Shown here in pieces: positions 5,486-55,725 of a DNA stretch of 64,000 nucleotides. Source of the DNA: Eledone cirrhosa (taxonomy: Eukaryota); assembly GCA_964016885.1 (NCBI GenBank), contig OZ024753.1, forward strand, positions 32,054,001 to 32,118,000, in the 5' to 3' direction. The notes beneath the pieces are model-generated. The model worked only from the letters and a program-made list of their open reading frames with translations, was not told the origin of the DNA and ran no database searches. Within the stretch, counting starts at the first letter, position 1, and every line of letters starts with the position of its first letter. Position numbers and translations under genes: made by a program.

Positions 5486-5519
<34 letters not shown>

Positions 5520-5674
5520 GTATAGGATTATCCAAGATGCAGTGATGGTTAATTACTACACTGGATATGGTTGACGTACGGTAAGAGGTTACTCTACGAG
5601 TTATGGAAGAATTGTTCAAGAAACTTAGTTCCTGATCCTTCAGTATTCCGGAGTGTATATAAAGAATGAATAAT

Positions 5675-5857
5675 TGTTTCTACTTTTGGCACAAGGCCAG
5701 CAATTATCCAGTACATTACTGGTACTTTATTTTATCGACCCCGTAAGGATGAAAGGCAAAGTTGACCTCGGCGGGATTTGAACTCAGAATGGAAAGATCC
5801 GTAACTCTATGCGTCAAAGCATATCGTCCGACCCTCTACCGATACTGCCAATCCACC
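5675..5857 (-). mobile_element. SINE family A inserted at the end of a PLE arm
   Basis: TSD TATATAAAGAATGAATAAT at 5656-5674 and 5861-5879. Confidence 0.9.
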
Positions 5858-5860
5858 ATA

Positions 5861-6111
5861 TATATAAAGAATGAATAATAACAGGTAGACATCATAAAAA
5901 GGTAGTTTATTCCGTGTGCTTACAAGTGTTTCCACGGTGGTACTGCAGCCTGCTCTGAGGAAACAGTGGTCACAGCATTGGATATTCGAGTTCTGCAAAT
6001 ACTTGTGAATTTGCACGTAGCGGAACTAGGCTGCAGTACCACCGTGGAAACACTTGTAGCACACGGAATAAACTACCTTTTTATGATGTCTACCTGTTAT
6101 TATTCATTCTT

Positions 6112-6118
<7 letters not shown>
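5861..6118 (+). mobile_element. Fold-back PLE remnant (family P2) with extended hammerhead
   Basis: Arms 5861-5951/6028-6118. TGCT-CTGAGGA...GAAACACTTGTA-(A)GCA at 5951-6061. Same family as 55471-55660. Confidence 0.85.
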
Positions 6119-9438: not shown

Positions 9439-9580
9439 GTTCGGATCTAGCTATCGAAACGGCTGGAGCTCAGCCGTCGGGGTCCTGACTGTTTTCATAT
9501 TACCCACTTTACTACCGTAAGTATTGAGTACTCTGGTGCGTTATGGTTCACCAGGTATCTTACCACAGCCTCTTTGTTTA
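9439..9580 (+). mobile_element. PLE-like remnant (family P3) carrying the 3' half of an HHR
   Basis: CTAGCTATC-GAAACGGC-TGGAGCTCA-GCCGTC-GGGG, in (TA)n. Other copies at 1751, 11943, 27124 and 47837. Confidence 0.75.
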
Positions 9581-11942: not shown

Positions 11943-12033
11943 TAGGAAATGAGTCAGGACCCAGACAGCTGAGCTCCGGCCGTTCCGACAGCTAGGCGTT
12001 ATGGTCCACCTGGTTCCTTACCACACTTTGTTA
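11943..12033. mobile_element. Family P3 fragment: inverted HHR half fused to the forward tail
   Basis: 11943-11994 is the reverse complement of the HHR part; 11995-12033 is the forward tail GCGTTATGGTCCACCTGG. Confidence 0.7.
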
Positions 12034-43899: not shown

Positions 43900-44200
43900 A
43901 CGACGAAGACGTCCTTCGCATATGTATCTGGGGGATTACTTCCAAGCTGGCTTGGAAACCACTGGACTGAGGATGATACAGAGATGGTAGTCATCCTGCC
44001 AGATTGACCTATGTCCGTACATCTTGTTCCTTTGTTGAATTGGGACACCATATTCACCAATATTTCCAATAACTGCAGCATGCAAGAGGCTGAGAACGAA
44101 CCACGGAGAGCTTTGTGTTTGCTTGGTGGGTTTTGAAAGAGGAGATAGTGTCTATAGCCTTCACAAGACCTCTGAAACCGGTGCTGCACCAGTCAGGAAC
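43900..44200 (-). pseudogene. Decayed non-LTR reverse transcriptase fragment
   Basis: FRGLVKAIDTI resembles F.DL.KAFD.V. After a frameshift, ISVSSSVQWFPSQLGSNPPDTYAKD resembles V.SGVPQGS.LGP.LF..Y..D. Confidence 0.45.
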
Positions 44201-46315
44201 TCTTATGCTATTGCTTACCGGCTTTTCTTTCATAATTGAAACATTATTTATAAAGAAGCCAAAGACATAAAAATCAATTGAAAAATCTTGTACATAATTG
44301 AATAGGAACAGATATAACAAAAAATATCTATTAACAATGAAAAAAGGTTTATTTCTGTTGATTGCAGCACCAAACAAATGACGTGGTATAAAATAACTTT
44401 ACATATTGAAAAGAAGAGAATTTTATTGTAAATTAGAGAAATGCATTAGCAGAATATAGATAAAAAAAATTGAATAAGTTGTTATATCTTAAAAGTTATT
44501 TTTACTTTGGAAAATATTTTCAATCACACATACAAACACACACACAATATATATATATATATACACACATCCACAAACACGTCGGTCTCTGATTATGTGA
44601 GGGAATGTGTGACAATACACGTACTGAGTGGGGGTTTATTGAAGAAACAATTGAATATCATTGATTTAGTTATATTTTCTGAAGACAATAGTGAGAAAAT
44701 GAATTTATTTTGAACAATTTATTTCTAGCTCTAAGAAATGTTAGCTAGCAATAAAACGTGATACAATGACTGAATTAATAACAGATGCGTCGCTTCCGGA
44801 TTCTTGTGATATTTGGCAACGCTTTGAAACCTTCTTTACGACCATGTGATTGAAATCCTCATTAGACGGTTTTAATTGGAGAAATTCTACTTAACAGTAT
44901 TAACAAAATCAATAGTTATTTTATTGCACAACTTTACACAAATGTATGTTTTGCACCAGTTTACGTTCACTTCAAATCTATTCACACAGCATATCATCCT
45001 TATAAAAGGTTATCAGATATACAGAATCCAATGAATTATCTGTTTGCTCGATACAAATTAGAATGCTCTGTATTTCAGTTATATTATAAATTTTATAAGA
45101 AATACAATGCATTGCTATATAATACCCTTCCATTCACAGAATCATATGAATAATTGTTTTCTGATGAGGAGAAATTCTTTTGAAATTTAGTATAAGTTTA
45201 ATCACATATTTTATGTTTGTAATGAACGATAGTTGAATGTGTTTGTAGTTCATTCTTATCAGAGCGATTTTCTACATTCTGAGTTCACATCTCGCCTAGG
45301 TCAATTTTGCCTTTCACCTTTCTTGGGCCGATAAAATAAAGAACCATTTAAGTACTGGGGTCGATTTTCTAGGGCCGATAAAATAAAGAACCATTTAAGT
45401 ACTGCGCTTCGATTTTCTACACCTCGAAAATGCTGGGTCTTTGTCTTAATTAGAAACTTTTAATCAAATCAGTTAAAAATAGCAGCGAAACATAATTTTA
45501 TCACAGTATCATCGTAAAAGATGGGGCACATGTCTATCTTGACTAGTGTAGCCTTGGATACACTATACGTCAGAACAAATGCGCAATGATCGTAGCTTCT
45601 ACGCTTTTAATCATATGTCGGTTTACTCAAGGCTGCCTGGAGTTTAAATAACATTACCACTAGCAACAACAACCGCTTAAATATAAAAGAATGATAATGT
45701 TTGACAGAACTATAACAATTGCATTACTAGATTCAATTAGTATGTATGTACAGTAATTCTAAAATGTTTAAAGTGGAAATGAAGAAATCAATATAGAATA
45801 GCATTTAAAGAAAGTTCCTCTCAGATATCAGAAGACTATATTAGATTTGGGTAAAACACACGAACATTTGAAATACGAAATCGATGATGTTAGGAAGACC
45901 AAATTTTCAATGGAAATTCTATTAAAAGGCAAAAGGTAAATATAACATTACATAAACTAGAAAATATTTCTCTATCTGAATCAATACAGCACAAATCCTG
46001 CAAAATAGCTTCTATCAAATTCTAGAAATTTGCCTTAATCAGTCAGGACGATATCGGGGGTTGAGTTGGCCAGCATTCATCTAATTTAACTGTTGAAAAC
46101 GGTGTGACTTAAAGGTTGACATTGATAGGCTTTCACCGAAATCAATTTAAGATAAATTCATTAATTGTAACTTAAGAAAGGATAGACGTCCATTTAATCA
46201 TAGTGGATGAGTATCACTTAAGAATAGTTTTTTTATTCTCAAGAAATTAAGAATTGCTTTTCAAAAGATGGAGTTTAAATTAACAATTAACATAATATAA
46301 AATCAACAATGATAC

Positions 46316-46354
<39 letters not shown>

Positions 46355-46467
46355 AAGCTTCTCTCGCACTCTTTTTGATTTCTATTTAATGCACAGTTCA
46401 TCCTCTCTCATACAACCCACAGACCAGAAGAATCCTATTATTTTCCTCTTTCGATGCGCCCCCGCCT

Positions 46468-46556
<89 letters not shown>

Positions 46557-46924
46557 TACATATATATGTTTTATGTGTTAAATATTTCCGAAGAAAAAGC
46601 AAAGGGAAAAACAGTGCTCTACGTTAATACAGAGCTATTTAATTAGGAAGTAAAGAATACAATATAACTTATTTACTTACTAATTAAATATATATATATA
46701 TACACACACACATACATTTTACTGTATATATTTTTAAGTCTTAAAGACCAAGTTAGTTTCCTTGATTATTCTTTTGATGAATGGAATTTTGGCTGAGATT
46801 TTGCACTATAATGTACGAGATAGTTTGGAAGGGTTAATTCGAGATCCTCATTTTGTTATCATATTCCAAACGAACGTCAGAGACTATGGTCTTCAAAAAT
46901 AATGAGAAATTTAGAGAGGCTTGT

Positions 46925-47070
46925 TATTAGTAGCGGGATAGGTAGGGAGAGGGGGAGGGATGATGAGGAGAGGAGAAGTAGAAATGACTATTTATATATA
47001 TATATATATATATAGTGTCACTTCTACTTCTTCCTCTCATCGTCATCCTCGCCTCCCCCCTATTCCGTTA

Positions 47071-47076
<6 letters not shown>
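46925..47076. repeat. Imperfect inverted repeat centred on a (TA)n tract
   Basis: TATTAGTAGCGGGATAGG...AGAAGTAGAAATGACTA versus TAGTGTCACTTCTACTTCT...CCTATTCCGTTACTAATA. Confidence 0.75.
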
Positions 47077-47124
<48 letters not shown>

Positions 47125-47126
47125 AA

Positions 47127-47342
47127 TCGATCGACTTTCGTCAAATCGGACCGAGGAAACAATGTTTCCATTGGTCTTTCCAATTGCTAATACTATCTAT
47201 CGGTCGCAACTCCAGGTAGAAGGAGCAACGTGAAATAAAGTGTCTTGCTCAAGGACATAACGCATCACCTGCTCCAGGAATCGAACTCACAACCTTCCGA
47301 TTGCGAATCCAATTCTCTAACCACTCAGCCACACGCCTTCAC
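47127..47342 (-). mobile_element. CORE-type SINE (family B variant)
   Basis: Near-identical to 54470-54686; tRNA-like head at the right end. Confidence 0.88.
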
Positions 47343-47401
47343 TGAGTGAGATATATATATATATATCACTGAGTGAGATATATATATATATATATATATA
47401 C

Positions 47402-47793
47402 ATTTTGAGTATATGTTGATTGTTTACCGACACCTCAGTATGCAGATTGGAGCCCTCGACGAAGTACGCAGGTTGGTTTGTTTACTCCGGAGTAATGTAA
47501 AATAAAATAAGTAAGTCAAATATGTAAAATTTGGCTTCGTTTATTATAAATTATAGATTTGCTGCTATATATACTTTGGTGACAGCCATTATTGTCTGTG
47601 ACCTCTTCAGACAGTCCGAATTGGAGTGGAAAAGACAGGTACACATGTTGTTGAAGTGTTTCACTCTGTCAATACATCGATATGTCCAGCTCTTCGGTGT
47701 ATTGTTAGTCCTCCGAGGAACTGGAATCATATGTAAATCTATAATTTATATTAAACGAAGCCAAATTTTACATATTTGACTTACTTATTTTAT

Positions 47794-47797
<4 letters not shown>
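47402..47797 (-). mobile_element. Family P5 copy with degenerate HHR and short inverted tail
   Basis: Homologous to 15425-16020. The HHR at 47561-47615 has GAAA mutated. Confidence 0.8.
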
Positions 47798-47836
<39 letters not shown>

Positions 47837-47837
<1 letters not shown>

Positions 47838-48794
47838 ACGAGTAGGACCCCGACGGCTGAGCTCAAGCCGTTTCGACGGCTAATTCTGGACTGAATTAGT
47901 CCAGAATTAGCCGTCGAAACGGCTTGAGCTCAGCCGTCGGGGTCCTACTCGTTCCTATTACCCACTCTACTACCGTAAGTATTGAGTACTTTGGTACGTT
48001 ATGGTCCACCTGGTTCCTTACCACATTTCCTCCGTTATATATATATATATATCAGGATAGAGCTAGATTTAAAATTGTTAGACCATTACTCAACAGAGTA
48101 CTCCTTGCATGGATAGTAGAGTATGGTTATATTATAAAAAATCGGGGCCCGAACATTCTTAAAGCCTACTATATAAGCAGCGTTCTCCTTAATAGGCGTG
48201 TTTTTGAAACTAAGTTTCTTACATAAAATTATTATAGAAATCTCAGAAAAATGGGAAAACACGGCTTATGGAAGCTGTTAGAACAACAAAATACCGTCGA
48301 AGCGGCGTTGGGTAAAATATTACCTCGAAGGATAGAGATCAGCGGCTCGATGTGAGTTGACTCGAAACTGCAGGATGTTGAGATCTGAAGAGCATATTTT
48401 AATGCTTGTGACCTGTTCGCTCTCATCCATTCTATTTCCTCCTTCCTATCTTCTCTTCCTTCCTTTGAGTCAACTCACATCGAGCCGCTGAACTCTGTCA
48501 TTCGAGGTAATATTTTACCCAACGCCGCTTTGACGGTATTTTGCTATTCTAACAGCTTCCATACGCCGAGTTTTCCCATTTGTCTGAGATTTCTATAATA
48601 ATTTTATGTAAGAAACTTAGTTTCAAAAACACGCCTGATAAGGAGAACGCTGCAAGAATGTTCGGGCCCCGATTTTTTATAATATAACCATACTCTACTA
48701 TTCCATGCAAGGAGTACTCTGTTGAGTAATGGTCTAACAATTTTAAATCTAGCTCTATCCTGATATATATATATATATATATATCAGGATAGAG

Positions 48795-48840
<46 letters not shown>

Positions 48841-48899
48841 CGGAGGAAATGTGGTAAGGAACCAGGTGGACCATAACGCACCAAAGTACTCAATACTTA
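47837..48899. mobile_element. Composite nested fold-back: a P3 palindrome plus a second element with about 310-bp arms
   Basis: P3 arms 47837-47892/47898-47953; inner arms about 48050-48365/48464-48765; the P3 tail 47977-48040 is mirrored at 48835-48899. Confidence 0.85.
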
Positions 48900-49468
48900 G
48901 AAATGTTTTAGATAGATATAACAAACAGTATTGTACCATAGAACAAGGACTTGTTTCAGGTGGTTTGGTAGCAAGAGGGTAAATAATATCTAATATATAT
49001 GAGAGTTGAGAGTTGCCAAACGTTTCATATCAGATTTATGAGACTTATCCACTATTTTTAATAAAATGAAATGCTTAATTTTAGAAAAAGGTATTTCAGA
49101 AAACGCGCTGATATAAGATATCTTATCAATCCGAAGATATATCTTTCCTTCGTATTCGAAATATAGGAGATAATCTATTATGAGAAACTATATTTCATTT
49201 CCTTTTAACATTCACTAGGCTAAGTCAGTTACTATGGATATTAACGTACAATTTTCTGTTCGTACACAGAAATATGTTTACTAGATATCGCAGGAAAGTT
49301 ATTATCTTCCAAACAGTAAATTCTAAGTATTTCGCTTTGAAATTCCATAATCGGGATACACAGCGTTGGCAAGGTTGGAAATTAGAGTTGAAGTGAAGCA
49401 AAACAAGTAACACTACAGACTCCATTTTCCCTGACTTCGTTTCAAAAGCCACGCACAAATACATAAAC

Positions 49469-49654: not shown

Positions 49655-49691
<37 letters not shown>

Positions 49692-49695
<4 letters not shown>

Positions 49696-49896
49696 CGTAG
49701 GTCCCGGGTTGAGTCGGGGATAACCACAGTAAGTAAGGTACTCAATACATGGCAGAGTAACATTTTTTATTTTATAGAAGGAGCTTCTACAGGACTAGTA
49801 CTGTTTCATTCAGATGAAATCTTCAGGAAGCCCTTCCTGAAGATTTCATCTGAATGAAACAGTACTAGTCCTGTAGAAGCTCCTTCTATAAAATAA
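49692..49896 (-). mobile_element. Fold-back PLE-like element (family P10): 130-bp palindrome with a 2-nt centre
   Basis: 64-bp arms 49767-49830/49833-49896; the tail continues on the minus strand to about 49692 and then into (TA)n. Confidence 0.88.
49781..49833 (-). ncRNA. Type I hammerhead ribozyme
   Basis: GGGCTTC-CTGAAGA-T-TTCA(TC)TGAA-T-GAAAC-AG(TACTAGTC)CT-GTA-GAAGCTC; 7-bp stem I including one G:U pair. Confidence 0.85.
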
Positions 49897-54686: not shown

Positions 54687-54812
54687 ACACGCATATATAT
54701 GTATATATAATTGTTTCTAGTTTTGGGACAAGGCCAGCAATTATCTCAGTGTATTACTGGTACTTTATTTTATCGACCCCCGTAAGGTTACATAACCTGC
54801 AGTACTTCAATC

Positions 54813-54959
54813 CATGGATTGAAGTACTGCAGGTTATGTAACCTTGAACTCTTTTACATATTAAAATCCAAAAACAAACTACTTAACGATAGAATCGAAC
54901 GATCATTATACTGCAACCACAAACTAAAAGCTAAATTCTCTCACTATAAAATAACTTAA
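54813..54959 (+). pseudogene. C-terminal fragment of a PLE GIY-YIG endonuclease
   Basis: HGLKYCRLCNLELFYILKSKNKLLNDRIERSLYCNHKLKAKFSHYKIT* matches the C..C..E...I....LLN.R.E....C.H pattern recalled from invertebrate PLEs. Confidence 0.8.
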
Positions 54960-55157
54960 CATTCGAACCCGTAACTATAACATCGCTTTCTAGCTAACCA
55001 CCTTCTCTTCCCCCACACTACAAGACAATACACTGCTTATCACTATAAATGGTAACTCAGTGCAATTCTCAGATTACTACTACGAACCCAGAGTTCACTC
55101 ACCACATAGACTTCGTCTGTCCCCTCTCTATCTCTCTCTCTACATCCATTACACACA

Positions 55158-55196
<39 letters not shown>

Positions 55197-55470
55197 CTTT
55201 GGCCTACCTCCCTCTCCACATCTATGAACCTGGCCTCTGGGGCAATAAATAATTCCGACCTTAACTATCAACGCATCTCTCCAAAAGTAACCAGTATAAT
55301 AAACCCCTACCATAACTTTTGATTAAGATATCTACAAACCACTCTCTCCTATCTCTCCAACCCCTGCATATCTTTCTCTCCCTCTCCCCTACTTTTCTCT
55401 CTTCCTTTTCTACTCTATCTTCTCCAACAACCCCACTTAAGGGTATTTACATTGTACATTTAAACCAGTC

Positions 55471-55582
55471 TGCTCTGAGGATAAAGTGGTCACAGCATTG
55501 GATATTTGAGTTCTGCAAATAGTTGTAAATTTGCACATACCATAACTAGGCTGTAGTACCACCGTGGAAACATTTGTAAGCA
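55471..55582 (+). ncRNA. Type I hammerhead with a long stem II insertion
   Basis: TGCT-CTGAGGA-[..GTGGT(C)ACAGC...GCTGT(AGT)ACCAC..]-GAAAC-ATTT-GTA-AGCA. Confidence 0.75.
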
Positions 55583-55684
55583 CACGGAATAAATTACCTT
55601 TTTATGATGTCTACCTGTTATTATTCATTCTTTATATATATTCATTCTTTATATATATTATTCTTTATATATATTATATATATA

Positions 55685-55725
<41 letters not shown>

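Follow-up and report, generated by a model that had tools for sequence, protein, structure and literature searches.

A probable Hydra-clade Penelope-like element remnant with a predicted outsized hammerhead and a 31-bp inverted edge in Eledone cirrhosa

The insertion and its endonuclease tip

The window analysed here is a 64-kb stretch of Eledone cirrhosa DNA (GenBank assembly GCA_964016885.1, contig OZ024753.1, positions 32,054,001 to 32,118,000), AT-rich and microsatellite-rich animal sequence in which an insertion at 54784-55637 lies between a SINE-like repeat and a (TA)n array. Positions 54815-55637 are very probably a 5'-truncated, non-coding remnant of a Penelope-like element (PLE) of the Hydra clade; it retains the endonuclease tip and 3' untranslated region (UTR) as well as the 3' end, with a predicted hammerhead between the last two. 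Judged from its sequence, the remnant is a member of a new family within this known clade. The locus is laid out as follows:

54707..54787, putative minus strand (from tail and target-site duplication pattern): 3' part of an abundant SINE-like repeat, the insertion target, outside the element (window hits, depth)
54784..54787, no strand: 4-nt microhomology in which the SINE matches the inverted arm's outer end (SINE copies diverge after 54787; the palindrome runs from 54784)
54784..54814, minus strand: inverted copy of the truncated element's first 31 nt, a non-native arm and perfect complement of 54815-54845
54815..54959, plus strand: final 47 codons of a Hydra-type PLE ORF with its stop, the end of a GIY-YIG endonuclease (CxxC...E...N...CxH), as read from profile, invariant columns and hhalign
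54960..55470, plus strand: 3' UTR rich in pyrimidines and poor in G, including a (CT)n run (67% C+T, 8% G)
55471..55582, plus strand: predicted type I hammerhead (descriptor, shuffles)
55583..55637, plus strand: element 3' terminus with a TA-rich junction at its end (same end in both arms of a second copy at 5861-6118)
55638..55725, plus strand: two more partial copies of the last 17-20 nt, then the (TA)n array that is the target (from the sequence)

An earlier, sequence-only reading had described a perfect 62-bp palindrome whose right half runs into an unannotated frame of 48 codons, and both descriptions hold. Positions 54784-54845 comprise 31 + 31 bp with no spacer and no mismatch, against a longest zero-spacer arm of 7-11 bp in 20 shuffles of the non-microsatellite window, and 54813-54959 encodes 48 amino acids and a stop, with CxxC, E, LN-x-R-x-E and CxH. 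The frame is without a start codon and its stop-to-stop frame opens at 54786; the first residue of the peptide is non-native, because its codon straddles the fold point.

A similarity search of the peptide against 1.84 billion representatives returned three hits, of which P0002 (138 aa) is 55% identical to the window peptide at E 3e-4 and P0003 (71 aa) matches at E 5e-4; P0001 (E 8e-10) is a tandem-repeat protein, judged spurious and left out. Hydra-type loci were collected by a degenerate pattern for the Hydra end motif, yielding at least 120 metagenome loci (about 390 estimated) and 15 genome loci. CxxC, which was not part of the selection, occurs in 81 of the 93 listed loci with enough upstream frame. 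All 13 ORFs of at least 400 aa among the loci listed carry the Y.DD motif of the RT, and among the same listed loci RWK is found in 8 of 12 and the CxCX5C linker in 11 of 12 of the relatives' ORFs. The end of one locus, L010, corresponds by eye to the Penelope-1_NV row of Fig. S7 in PMC8557442, as far as that source was available. Fifteen Hydra-type loci (L121-L135) lie in contigs filed as bacterial genomes, which are probably animal host DNA in the bins.

The peptide had been proposed as a Hydra-type CxxC...CxH endonuclease, with a TBLASTN or HHpred comparison against PLE proteins named as the check, and a profile comparison does find similarity. Against a profile of 64 distinct tails from the Hydra-type loci listed, the window peptide ranks first of 2,607 six-frame segments (E 3e-4), the next-best segment reaching E 0.23; with a control profile from which the selected motif was left out it still ranks first, but at E 0.23. 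On a full-ORF profile of 703 positions it aligns to positions 659-700, and it keeps all eight invariant columns of a 13-row Hydra-type alignment. Comparison by hhalign gives a probability of 80.9 (E 1.2e-5) for the peptide alone. Taken singly, then, the peptide is a moderate match by sequence (E 3e-4, or E 0.23 with the control profile). It is P0002 that bridges the tip to the whole GIY-YIG domain, matching the tail profile at E 2.7e-26; hhalign gives a probability of 99.4 for the three-sequence alignment. The predicted model of the domain of one relative, L079 (pLDDT 91), aligns with I-TevI (Z 9.1, rmsd 2.4, 89 aligned), and its top three structural matches are the known GIY-YIG domains of I-TevI, T4 EndoII and UvrC; Foldseek gave the same top hits, none at E <= 0.001. 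As modelled, the domain of this relative folds like GIY-YIG nucleases.

General databases named little. Pfam gave nothing above cut-off for the peptide (only KDM6_GATAL below it), no match for P0002 or P0003, and no RT or nuclease in the three full-length Hydra-type ORFs tested (3/3); a PDB sequence search returned one unrelated match at E 0.46; and the top ESM Atlas hits for P0002 were unnamed, one set at 0.93 carrying GIY-YIG on 37% of its members, which we take as a lead only. Homolog searches for longer proteins were empty (0 of 3 candidates for the peptide, 0 of 174 for P0002; weak evidence), only P0002 and P0003 were near-length homologs among 93 (again weak evidence), and no RT-bearing copy of the focal family was seen. 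A related-locus search with A1 confirmed none of 476 metagenome and 39 genome pattern matches, and a motif scan of viral contigs gave no matches.

The available parts of Craig et al. 2021 (PMC8557442) describe Hydra PLEs as having a C-terminal GIY-YIG domain without CCHH and with possible CxxC and CxH beside a conserved E and N, together with hammerheads and insertion targeted to (TA)n; Hydra-1_Obim, of Octopus bimaculoides, is among those listed. In Fig. S7 of that paper, CxxC and CxH are marked as Hydra-specific and are absent from nine Penelope/Poseidon, Nematis and Neptune rows. The focal peptide resembles Hydra-1_Obim, Penelope-1_NV and Penelope-13_HM, as shown there, in its C-terminal GIY-YIG tail and in CxxC and CxH placed around E and N, whereas its C-terminal sequence and hammerhead differ by eye from those of Hydra-1_Obim in the material available. 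By profile and alignment, the window peptide forms the C-terminal tip of an endonuclease from a Hydra-clade PLE. A Naiad/Chlamys PLE was considered and rejected, the endonuclease tip lying C-terminally in the ORF, immediately before the stop and 3' UTR, and not at the N-terminus.

An unusual predicted hammerhead before a fixed 3' end

The stretch between stop and hammerhead, correctly described beforehand as C/T-rich, is covered by related contigs on both sides of a skipped repeat, and the distance from the stop to the hammerhead core, 516 nt, compares with 80-295 nt in 30 Hydra-type relatives (loci listed). The predicted hammerhead that follows, all on the plus strand, consists of:

55471-55474 and 55579-55582: stem I, 4 bp
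55475-55481 and 55567-55570: CUGANGA and GAAA cores
55483-55490 and 55558-55565: stem II, 8 bp, enclosing a 67-nt insert
55491-55557: the 67-nt stem II insert, in which three further helices are possible (folding)
between 55578 and 55579: predicted UH cut site, with a short stem III

The sequence-only reading had called a hammerhead here; the motif itself stands, at 55475, but it is non-canonical and degenerate and has no Rfam match. A strict descriptor found five other hammerheads in the window (0.03 per shuffle) and missed both copies of the focal family; relaxed afterwards to 6 of 8 stem II pairs it matched at 55475, and the relaxed form matched none of 3,000 dinucleotide shuffles of 54960-55640. 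Rfam gave no match at gathering score in the window, no local match to its hammerhead families at E up to 10, and only a chance SNORD105 below threshold. Both cores, the UH cut site, stems I-III and an extra nucleotide after A9 are present, and the sequence supports reading the hammerhead as real as a motif. Between the cores lie 85 nt, as against 11-25 nt in the 30 of 76 listed Hydra-type loci in which a hammerhead was found. The motif lies 53-59 nt before the 3' end, a distance that is 32-61 nt in 14 of 16 listed relatives at TA arrays.

The minimum-energy fold of the focal copy recovers most of the stem II arm, and folding z-scores are -0.03 (focal copy) and -0.72. In the stems 67 of 75 cells are paired (89%) versus 26-36% in slid controls, a comparison in which the structure was drawn on the same sequences, and three near-identical rows show no covariation. 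Both window copies of the hammerhead are damaged, the focal copy by two mismatches at the base of stem II; related contigs mostly carry a pairing base at 55484 and 55540, so that the defects look copy-specific.

In its type I topology and extra nucleotide after A9 the motif resembles the minimal hammerheads of PLEs (Cervera and de la Pena 2014, PMC4209133) and those of non-LTR retrozymes (bioRxiv 10.64898/2026.07.22.740005), so far as these sources were available. PLE hammerheads are described in the accessible part of PMC4209133 as having a long helix II of 7-8 bp, short helices I and III and the extra nucleotide after A9; the focal motif shares with those of both sources the long helix II and short helices I and III, and like them would probably need a dimer or a protein. 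It differs from the minimal hammerheads in the 67-nt structured insert in helix II, and the element differs from the retrozymes, as described in what could be seen of the preprint, in being a coding-derived fragment that is not tandem. The non-LTR retrozyme reading was rejected for the focal copy, a single unit with a coding remnant and no tandem repeat of the unit. PAc, a green anole element of the Poseidon clade (Frangieh et al. 2024, PMC11167929), has in common with the focal element an AT-rich target and a hammerhead near the end, and the PAc hammerhead is dispensable for insertion in vitro (PMC11167929). We found no description of so large a stem II insert in any Hydra element in the mostly open-access literature. 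The locus adds to the Hydra clade a family distinct from Hydra-1_Obim; its outsized hammerhead escapes standard screens, and hammerhead counts in such genomes are for that reason probably low.

Other hammerheads accompany it in the window. In the palindrome at 49690-49896, whose arms measure 64 bp, each arm has a canonical short hammerhead, and a tail of about 75 nt is attached to the left arm alone; another hammerhead family, with 26 nt between cores, occupies 15420-15925 and 47402-47792, its two copies oriented towards one another with a (TA)n array between them; and hammerhead-like motifs with 36 and 62 nt between cores lie at 25590-25866 and 1253 (minus strand).

The 3' ends of both window copies of the focal family run into (TA)n, and a type I hammerhead in the 3' UTR with insertion at (TA)n is what PMC8557442, in its available parts, gives for the Hydra clade. 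The repeated last 17-20 nt behind the focal copy may come from restarted reverse transcription or from later slippage.

A short two-armed copy and longer relatives

Homology between the hammerhead end and a fold-back without an ORF at 5861-6118 had been noted from the sequence and was borne out: 55470-55637 is 92.3% identical to the right arm of the fold-back over 168 nt and 96.7% identical to its left arm over the last 90 nt. The features of this second copy are:

5519..5655, minus strand: candidate one-sided tail, flanked by a (TA)n array and the left arm's true tip
5656..5860, no strand: later SINE insertion (5675-5860) in the left-arm tip, with a 19-bp target duplication (5656-5674 = 5861-5879)
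5861..5951, minus strand: left arm, the element's last 91 nt, inverted (alignment)
5950..6118, plus strand: right arm, hammerhead stem I to 3' end, then (TA)n (alignment)

Both arms reach the element's 3' end, the right arm (5950-6118) is without one A at the predicted cut site, the copy has a 76-nt spacer, and the head-to-head junction has a 2-nt microhomology. By sequence the fold-back is a short two-armed copy of the focal family. Apart from this fold-back the window has no second copy of the coding part, of the UTR or of the hammerhead. The reading that the window's hairpins are truncation and fold-back products of this element stands for 5861-6118, which belongs to the same family, but not for the others, which come from other families; to call the focal insertion the key copy for them overstated the case, as they share no sequence with it. 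An ORF-less hammerhead fold-back is here tied to a coding Hydra-clade parent, and we suggest that such hairpins be annotated as PLE stumps and not as MITEs. A MITE reading was rejected for the focal copy itself.

Two-armed insertions, with an inverted 5'-truncated copy, are the published and typical PLE layout in the available parts of PMC8557442, and the focal element resembles Penelope-13_HM, as given there, in combining 5' truncation with an inverted copy. Among 69 listed Hydra-type loci, 14 have an inverted match near the 5' coding edge; not all of these were inspected, several are clear 3'-end arms, two-armed insertions among the relatives include L004, L027 and L121, and no clear case of the same zero-spacer coding palindrome was met. 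No tandem arrangement (pLTR or partial tandem) was seen in the focal copy.

The 137 nt at 5519-5655 are single-copy in the window, with a folding z-score of -1.74, and are a candidate one-sided tail by analogy with other two-armed elements of the window. Such one-sided tails, as found on those other elements, are explained by the two RT start sites of PAc, whose fixed internal start sites have a likeness to those of the focal element (PMC11167929). Another small two-armed family, with half a hammerhead, is found at 27110-27305, 47836-48030, 9439-9578, 11943-12029, 1750-1803 and 48845-48900; its one-sided tail measures about 80-90 nt, and the palindrome centre at 27137 is apparently its own stem II loop. 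A small bulged hairpin motif recurs in tails at 9507, 27229, 47965 and 1928, resembling by eye a string at the 3' end of Hydra-2_Amil, and was not clearly found for the focal family.

Related contigs come from four runs (at most three samples, two studies, organisms A, B and C), and they bear out the expectation that longer copies of the element exist, in which coding sequence goes on upstream beyond the fold point. Matches beginning at 54815 come from X4 and X5, whose contigs add 384 and 43 bases upstream; three contigs in X2 have a loose end at 54815, and in all three runs other sequence stands upstream of 54815. Because the native element continues upstream exactly at the symmetry centre, the left arm is an added inverted copy; the truncation lies within the ORF, and its position, 54815, is also the fold point. 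In the 30-nt loose-end consensus there is no in-frame stop, and it reads Y-R-x-G before CxxC, as in Hydra-1_Obim by eye. As far as they were read, the related contigs do not reach an RT.

Summed depth in X1 rises from about 15,000-25,000 over the coding tip through 41,000-48,000 at the hammerhead to 254,000 close to the 3' end, a gradient that is what 5' truncation gives and is not a copy number. The element is repeated and 3'-biased, in three organism labels and two studies, and inverted arms occur in both window copies, as expected of a PLE. No RNA dataset was among the sequencing runs matched by window sequence, and A-to-G hyper-editing was not apparent among the 40 variant rows of related contigs listed, out of 70.

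A rival reading takes the insertion for a non-coding repeat (SINE, retrozyme or MITE) whose frame has its motif, and whose hammerhead its fit, by chance. The lack of any Pfam match above cut-off or Rfam match, the z-scores of -0.03 and -0.72 and the missing covariation speak for it. Against these stand a profile match at the exact C-terminus of Hydra-type ORFs, native upstream sequence that continues in frame with the Hydra-1_Obim-like Y-R-x-G before CxxC, the 0 of 3,000 shuffles fitting the hammerhead, and the failure of Pfam to name an RT or nuclease even in 3/3 full-length Hydra-type ORFs. We regard chance as largely refuted and scarcely credible.

The left junction and routes to the palindrome

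The SINE-like repeat in which the insertion begins is abundant: 17 window hits begin at the same end, and its summed contig depth in X1 is about 7e6. After 54787 its copies continue differently, as loose ends in contigs and the alignment end at 54787 both show, and the other SINE copies inspected in the window have target duplications. A TA-rich string of 10 nt at 54702-54711 is found again at 55716-55725, where the (TA)n array behind the PLE ends, and may be the SINE's target-site duplication, bracketing SINE and PLE together, although it is of low complexity. This candidate duplication suggests, within the limits of so simple a string, that the SINE inserted first and the PLE landed at its edge. 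The left junction is outside (TA)n: the arm is internal and ends in microhomology inside the SINE, and by its sequence the junction looks like a repair junction. In this it departs from the inverted copies of the Hydra clade as far as PMC8557442 describes them, being internal, 31 bp long and not a copy of the 3' end. The palindrome and the fold-back at 5861-6118, earlier treated as one type of product, are therefore better kept apart, a 31-bp internal arm with microhomology being a different kind of junction.

For the palindrome we favour snap-back synthesis, and give that route, together with the identity proposed above, about an even chance. The element's GIY-YIG nuclease would nick the (TA)n array just right of the older SINE, and reverse transcription would begin at the element's fixed 3' end, perhaps restarting twice, both steps being modelled on the PLE literature. 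Synthesis stopped, as the contigs show, within the ORF at 54815; the 3' end of the cDNA would snap back on itself and be extended by 31 nt; and the new end would anneal to the four matching SINE bases seen at the junction and be sealed by microhomology-mediated repair, with loss of the target between those bases and the nick. For R2, junctions in which snap-back precedes 5' joining form a class described in the available parts of PMC11371274. The focal junction resembles these, and the twin-primed inversions of L1 (PMC10191854, likewise seen in part), in joining an antisense element copy to upstream target, but R2 and L1 are other retroelement classes, and no zero-spacer 31-nt duplication appears in the parts of the two sources available. 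An internal arm that ends in SINE microhomology and not in (TA)n counts for such a snap-back and repair junction. Against it, a loop would normally be left, yet the spacer is zero, and the palindrome is absent at 54815 in three X2 relatives; snap-back must consequently assume untemplated bases or loss of the loop. The loose-end consensus holds, 19 nt upstream, a 5-nt inverted copy of 54815-54819, a possible fold-back seed that would normally leave a 19-nt spacer.

The zero spacer is explained directly if two cDNAs were made on one RNA by twin priming, the bottom strand primed at (TA)n and the resected top strand, with its four matching bases, primed internally at 54845, so that both run off the same broken RNA end at 54815 and are joined blunt and head to head. 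In vitro, a PLE protein is able to cut both strands and to extend them (PMC11167929), twin priming accounts for L1 5' inversions (cited in PMC10191854, available in part), and three other head-to-head junctions in the window have spacers of 2, 2 and 5 nt. The reverse transcription of PAc, however, starts at fixed sites without target homology and not at internal microhomology (PMC11167929); PAc belongs to another clade, and such a start gives by itself no internal microhomology arm. The left junction, moreover, is outside (TA)n, and at 27137 the centre resembles, in comparison with the copy at 9442, the stem II loop belonging to that family, so that the small spacers there need no shared RNA end. 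We consider twin priming doubtful.

Two-armed insertions, typical of PLEs in the available parts of PMC8557442 and present in the focal family and its relatives, also invite the reading that an ordinary long two-armed copy later lost most of its left arm, down to 31 bp, through palindrome instability or a SINE-associated deletion. A perfect palindrome of 846 bp would be unstable. Palindromes usually lose their centre, however, and the perfect centre is intact here; the candidate duplication brackets SINE and PLE, placing the SINE first, with the caveat of its low complexity. Later trimming is in our view quite unlikely.

No contig among those listed in the four runs spans the palindrome, as would be expected if the 31-bp arm came from misassembly or misread sequence, or from a later fold-back without connection to the element; the best run, though, has less than half of the sequence words, so that the locus may be absent there, and the arm's start coincides exactly with the native truncation and its end lies in microhomology, which makes this highly improbable. 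A single locus cannot decide among snap-back, twin priming and later trimming, whereas a genome-wide collection of such junctions can separate the first two.

A bolder combination, which we hold to be unlikely, would have the hammerhead active, its 67-nt multi-helix stem II domain having a job of its own in protein docking or cleavage control, and the zero-spacer palindrome the fossil of one PLE enzyme complex that, working from both target strands, copied a single RNA twice and stopped each time at an identical last nucleotide. If true, a single complex of this kind would explain the inverted 5' ends of PLEs generally.

Hydra PLEs, (TA)n targeting, inverted 5' copies, snap-back junctions and an octopus family are already published; of the focal family we found no description in the mostly open-access literature, repeat libraries being outside that scope.

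Further rearranged sequences were noted in the window and among the relatives. An imperfect self-palindrome of 710 bp lies between TA arrays at 48052-48762, with a short tail-to-tail palindrome at 48750-48797, and at 19203-19762 SINE fragments are arrayed in tandem, two of them 77 nt and two about 188 nt long. One truncated Hydra-type copy, L060, has an 18-nt perfect palindrome 71-54 nt upstream of the motif in the oriented copy, near its 5' coding edge, possibly a smaller analogue of the focal junction.
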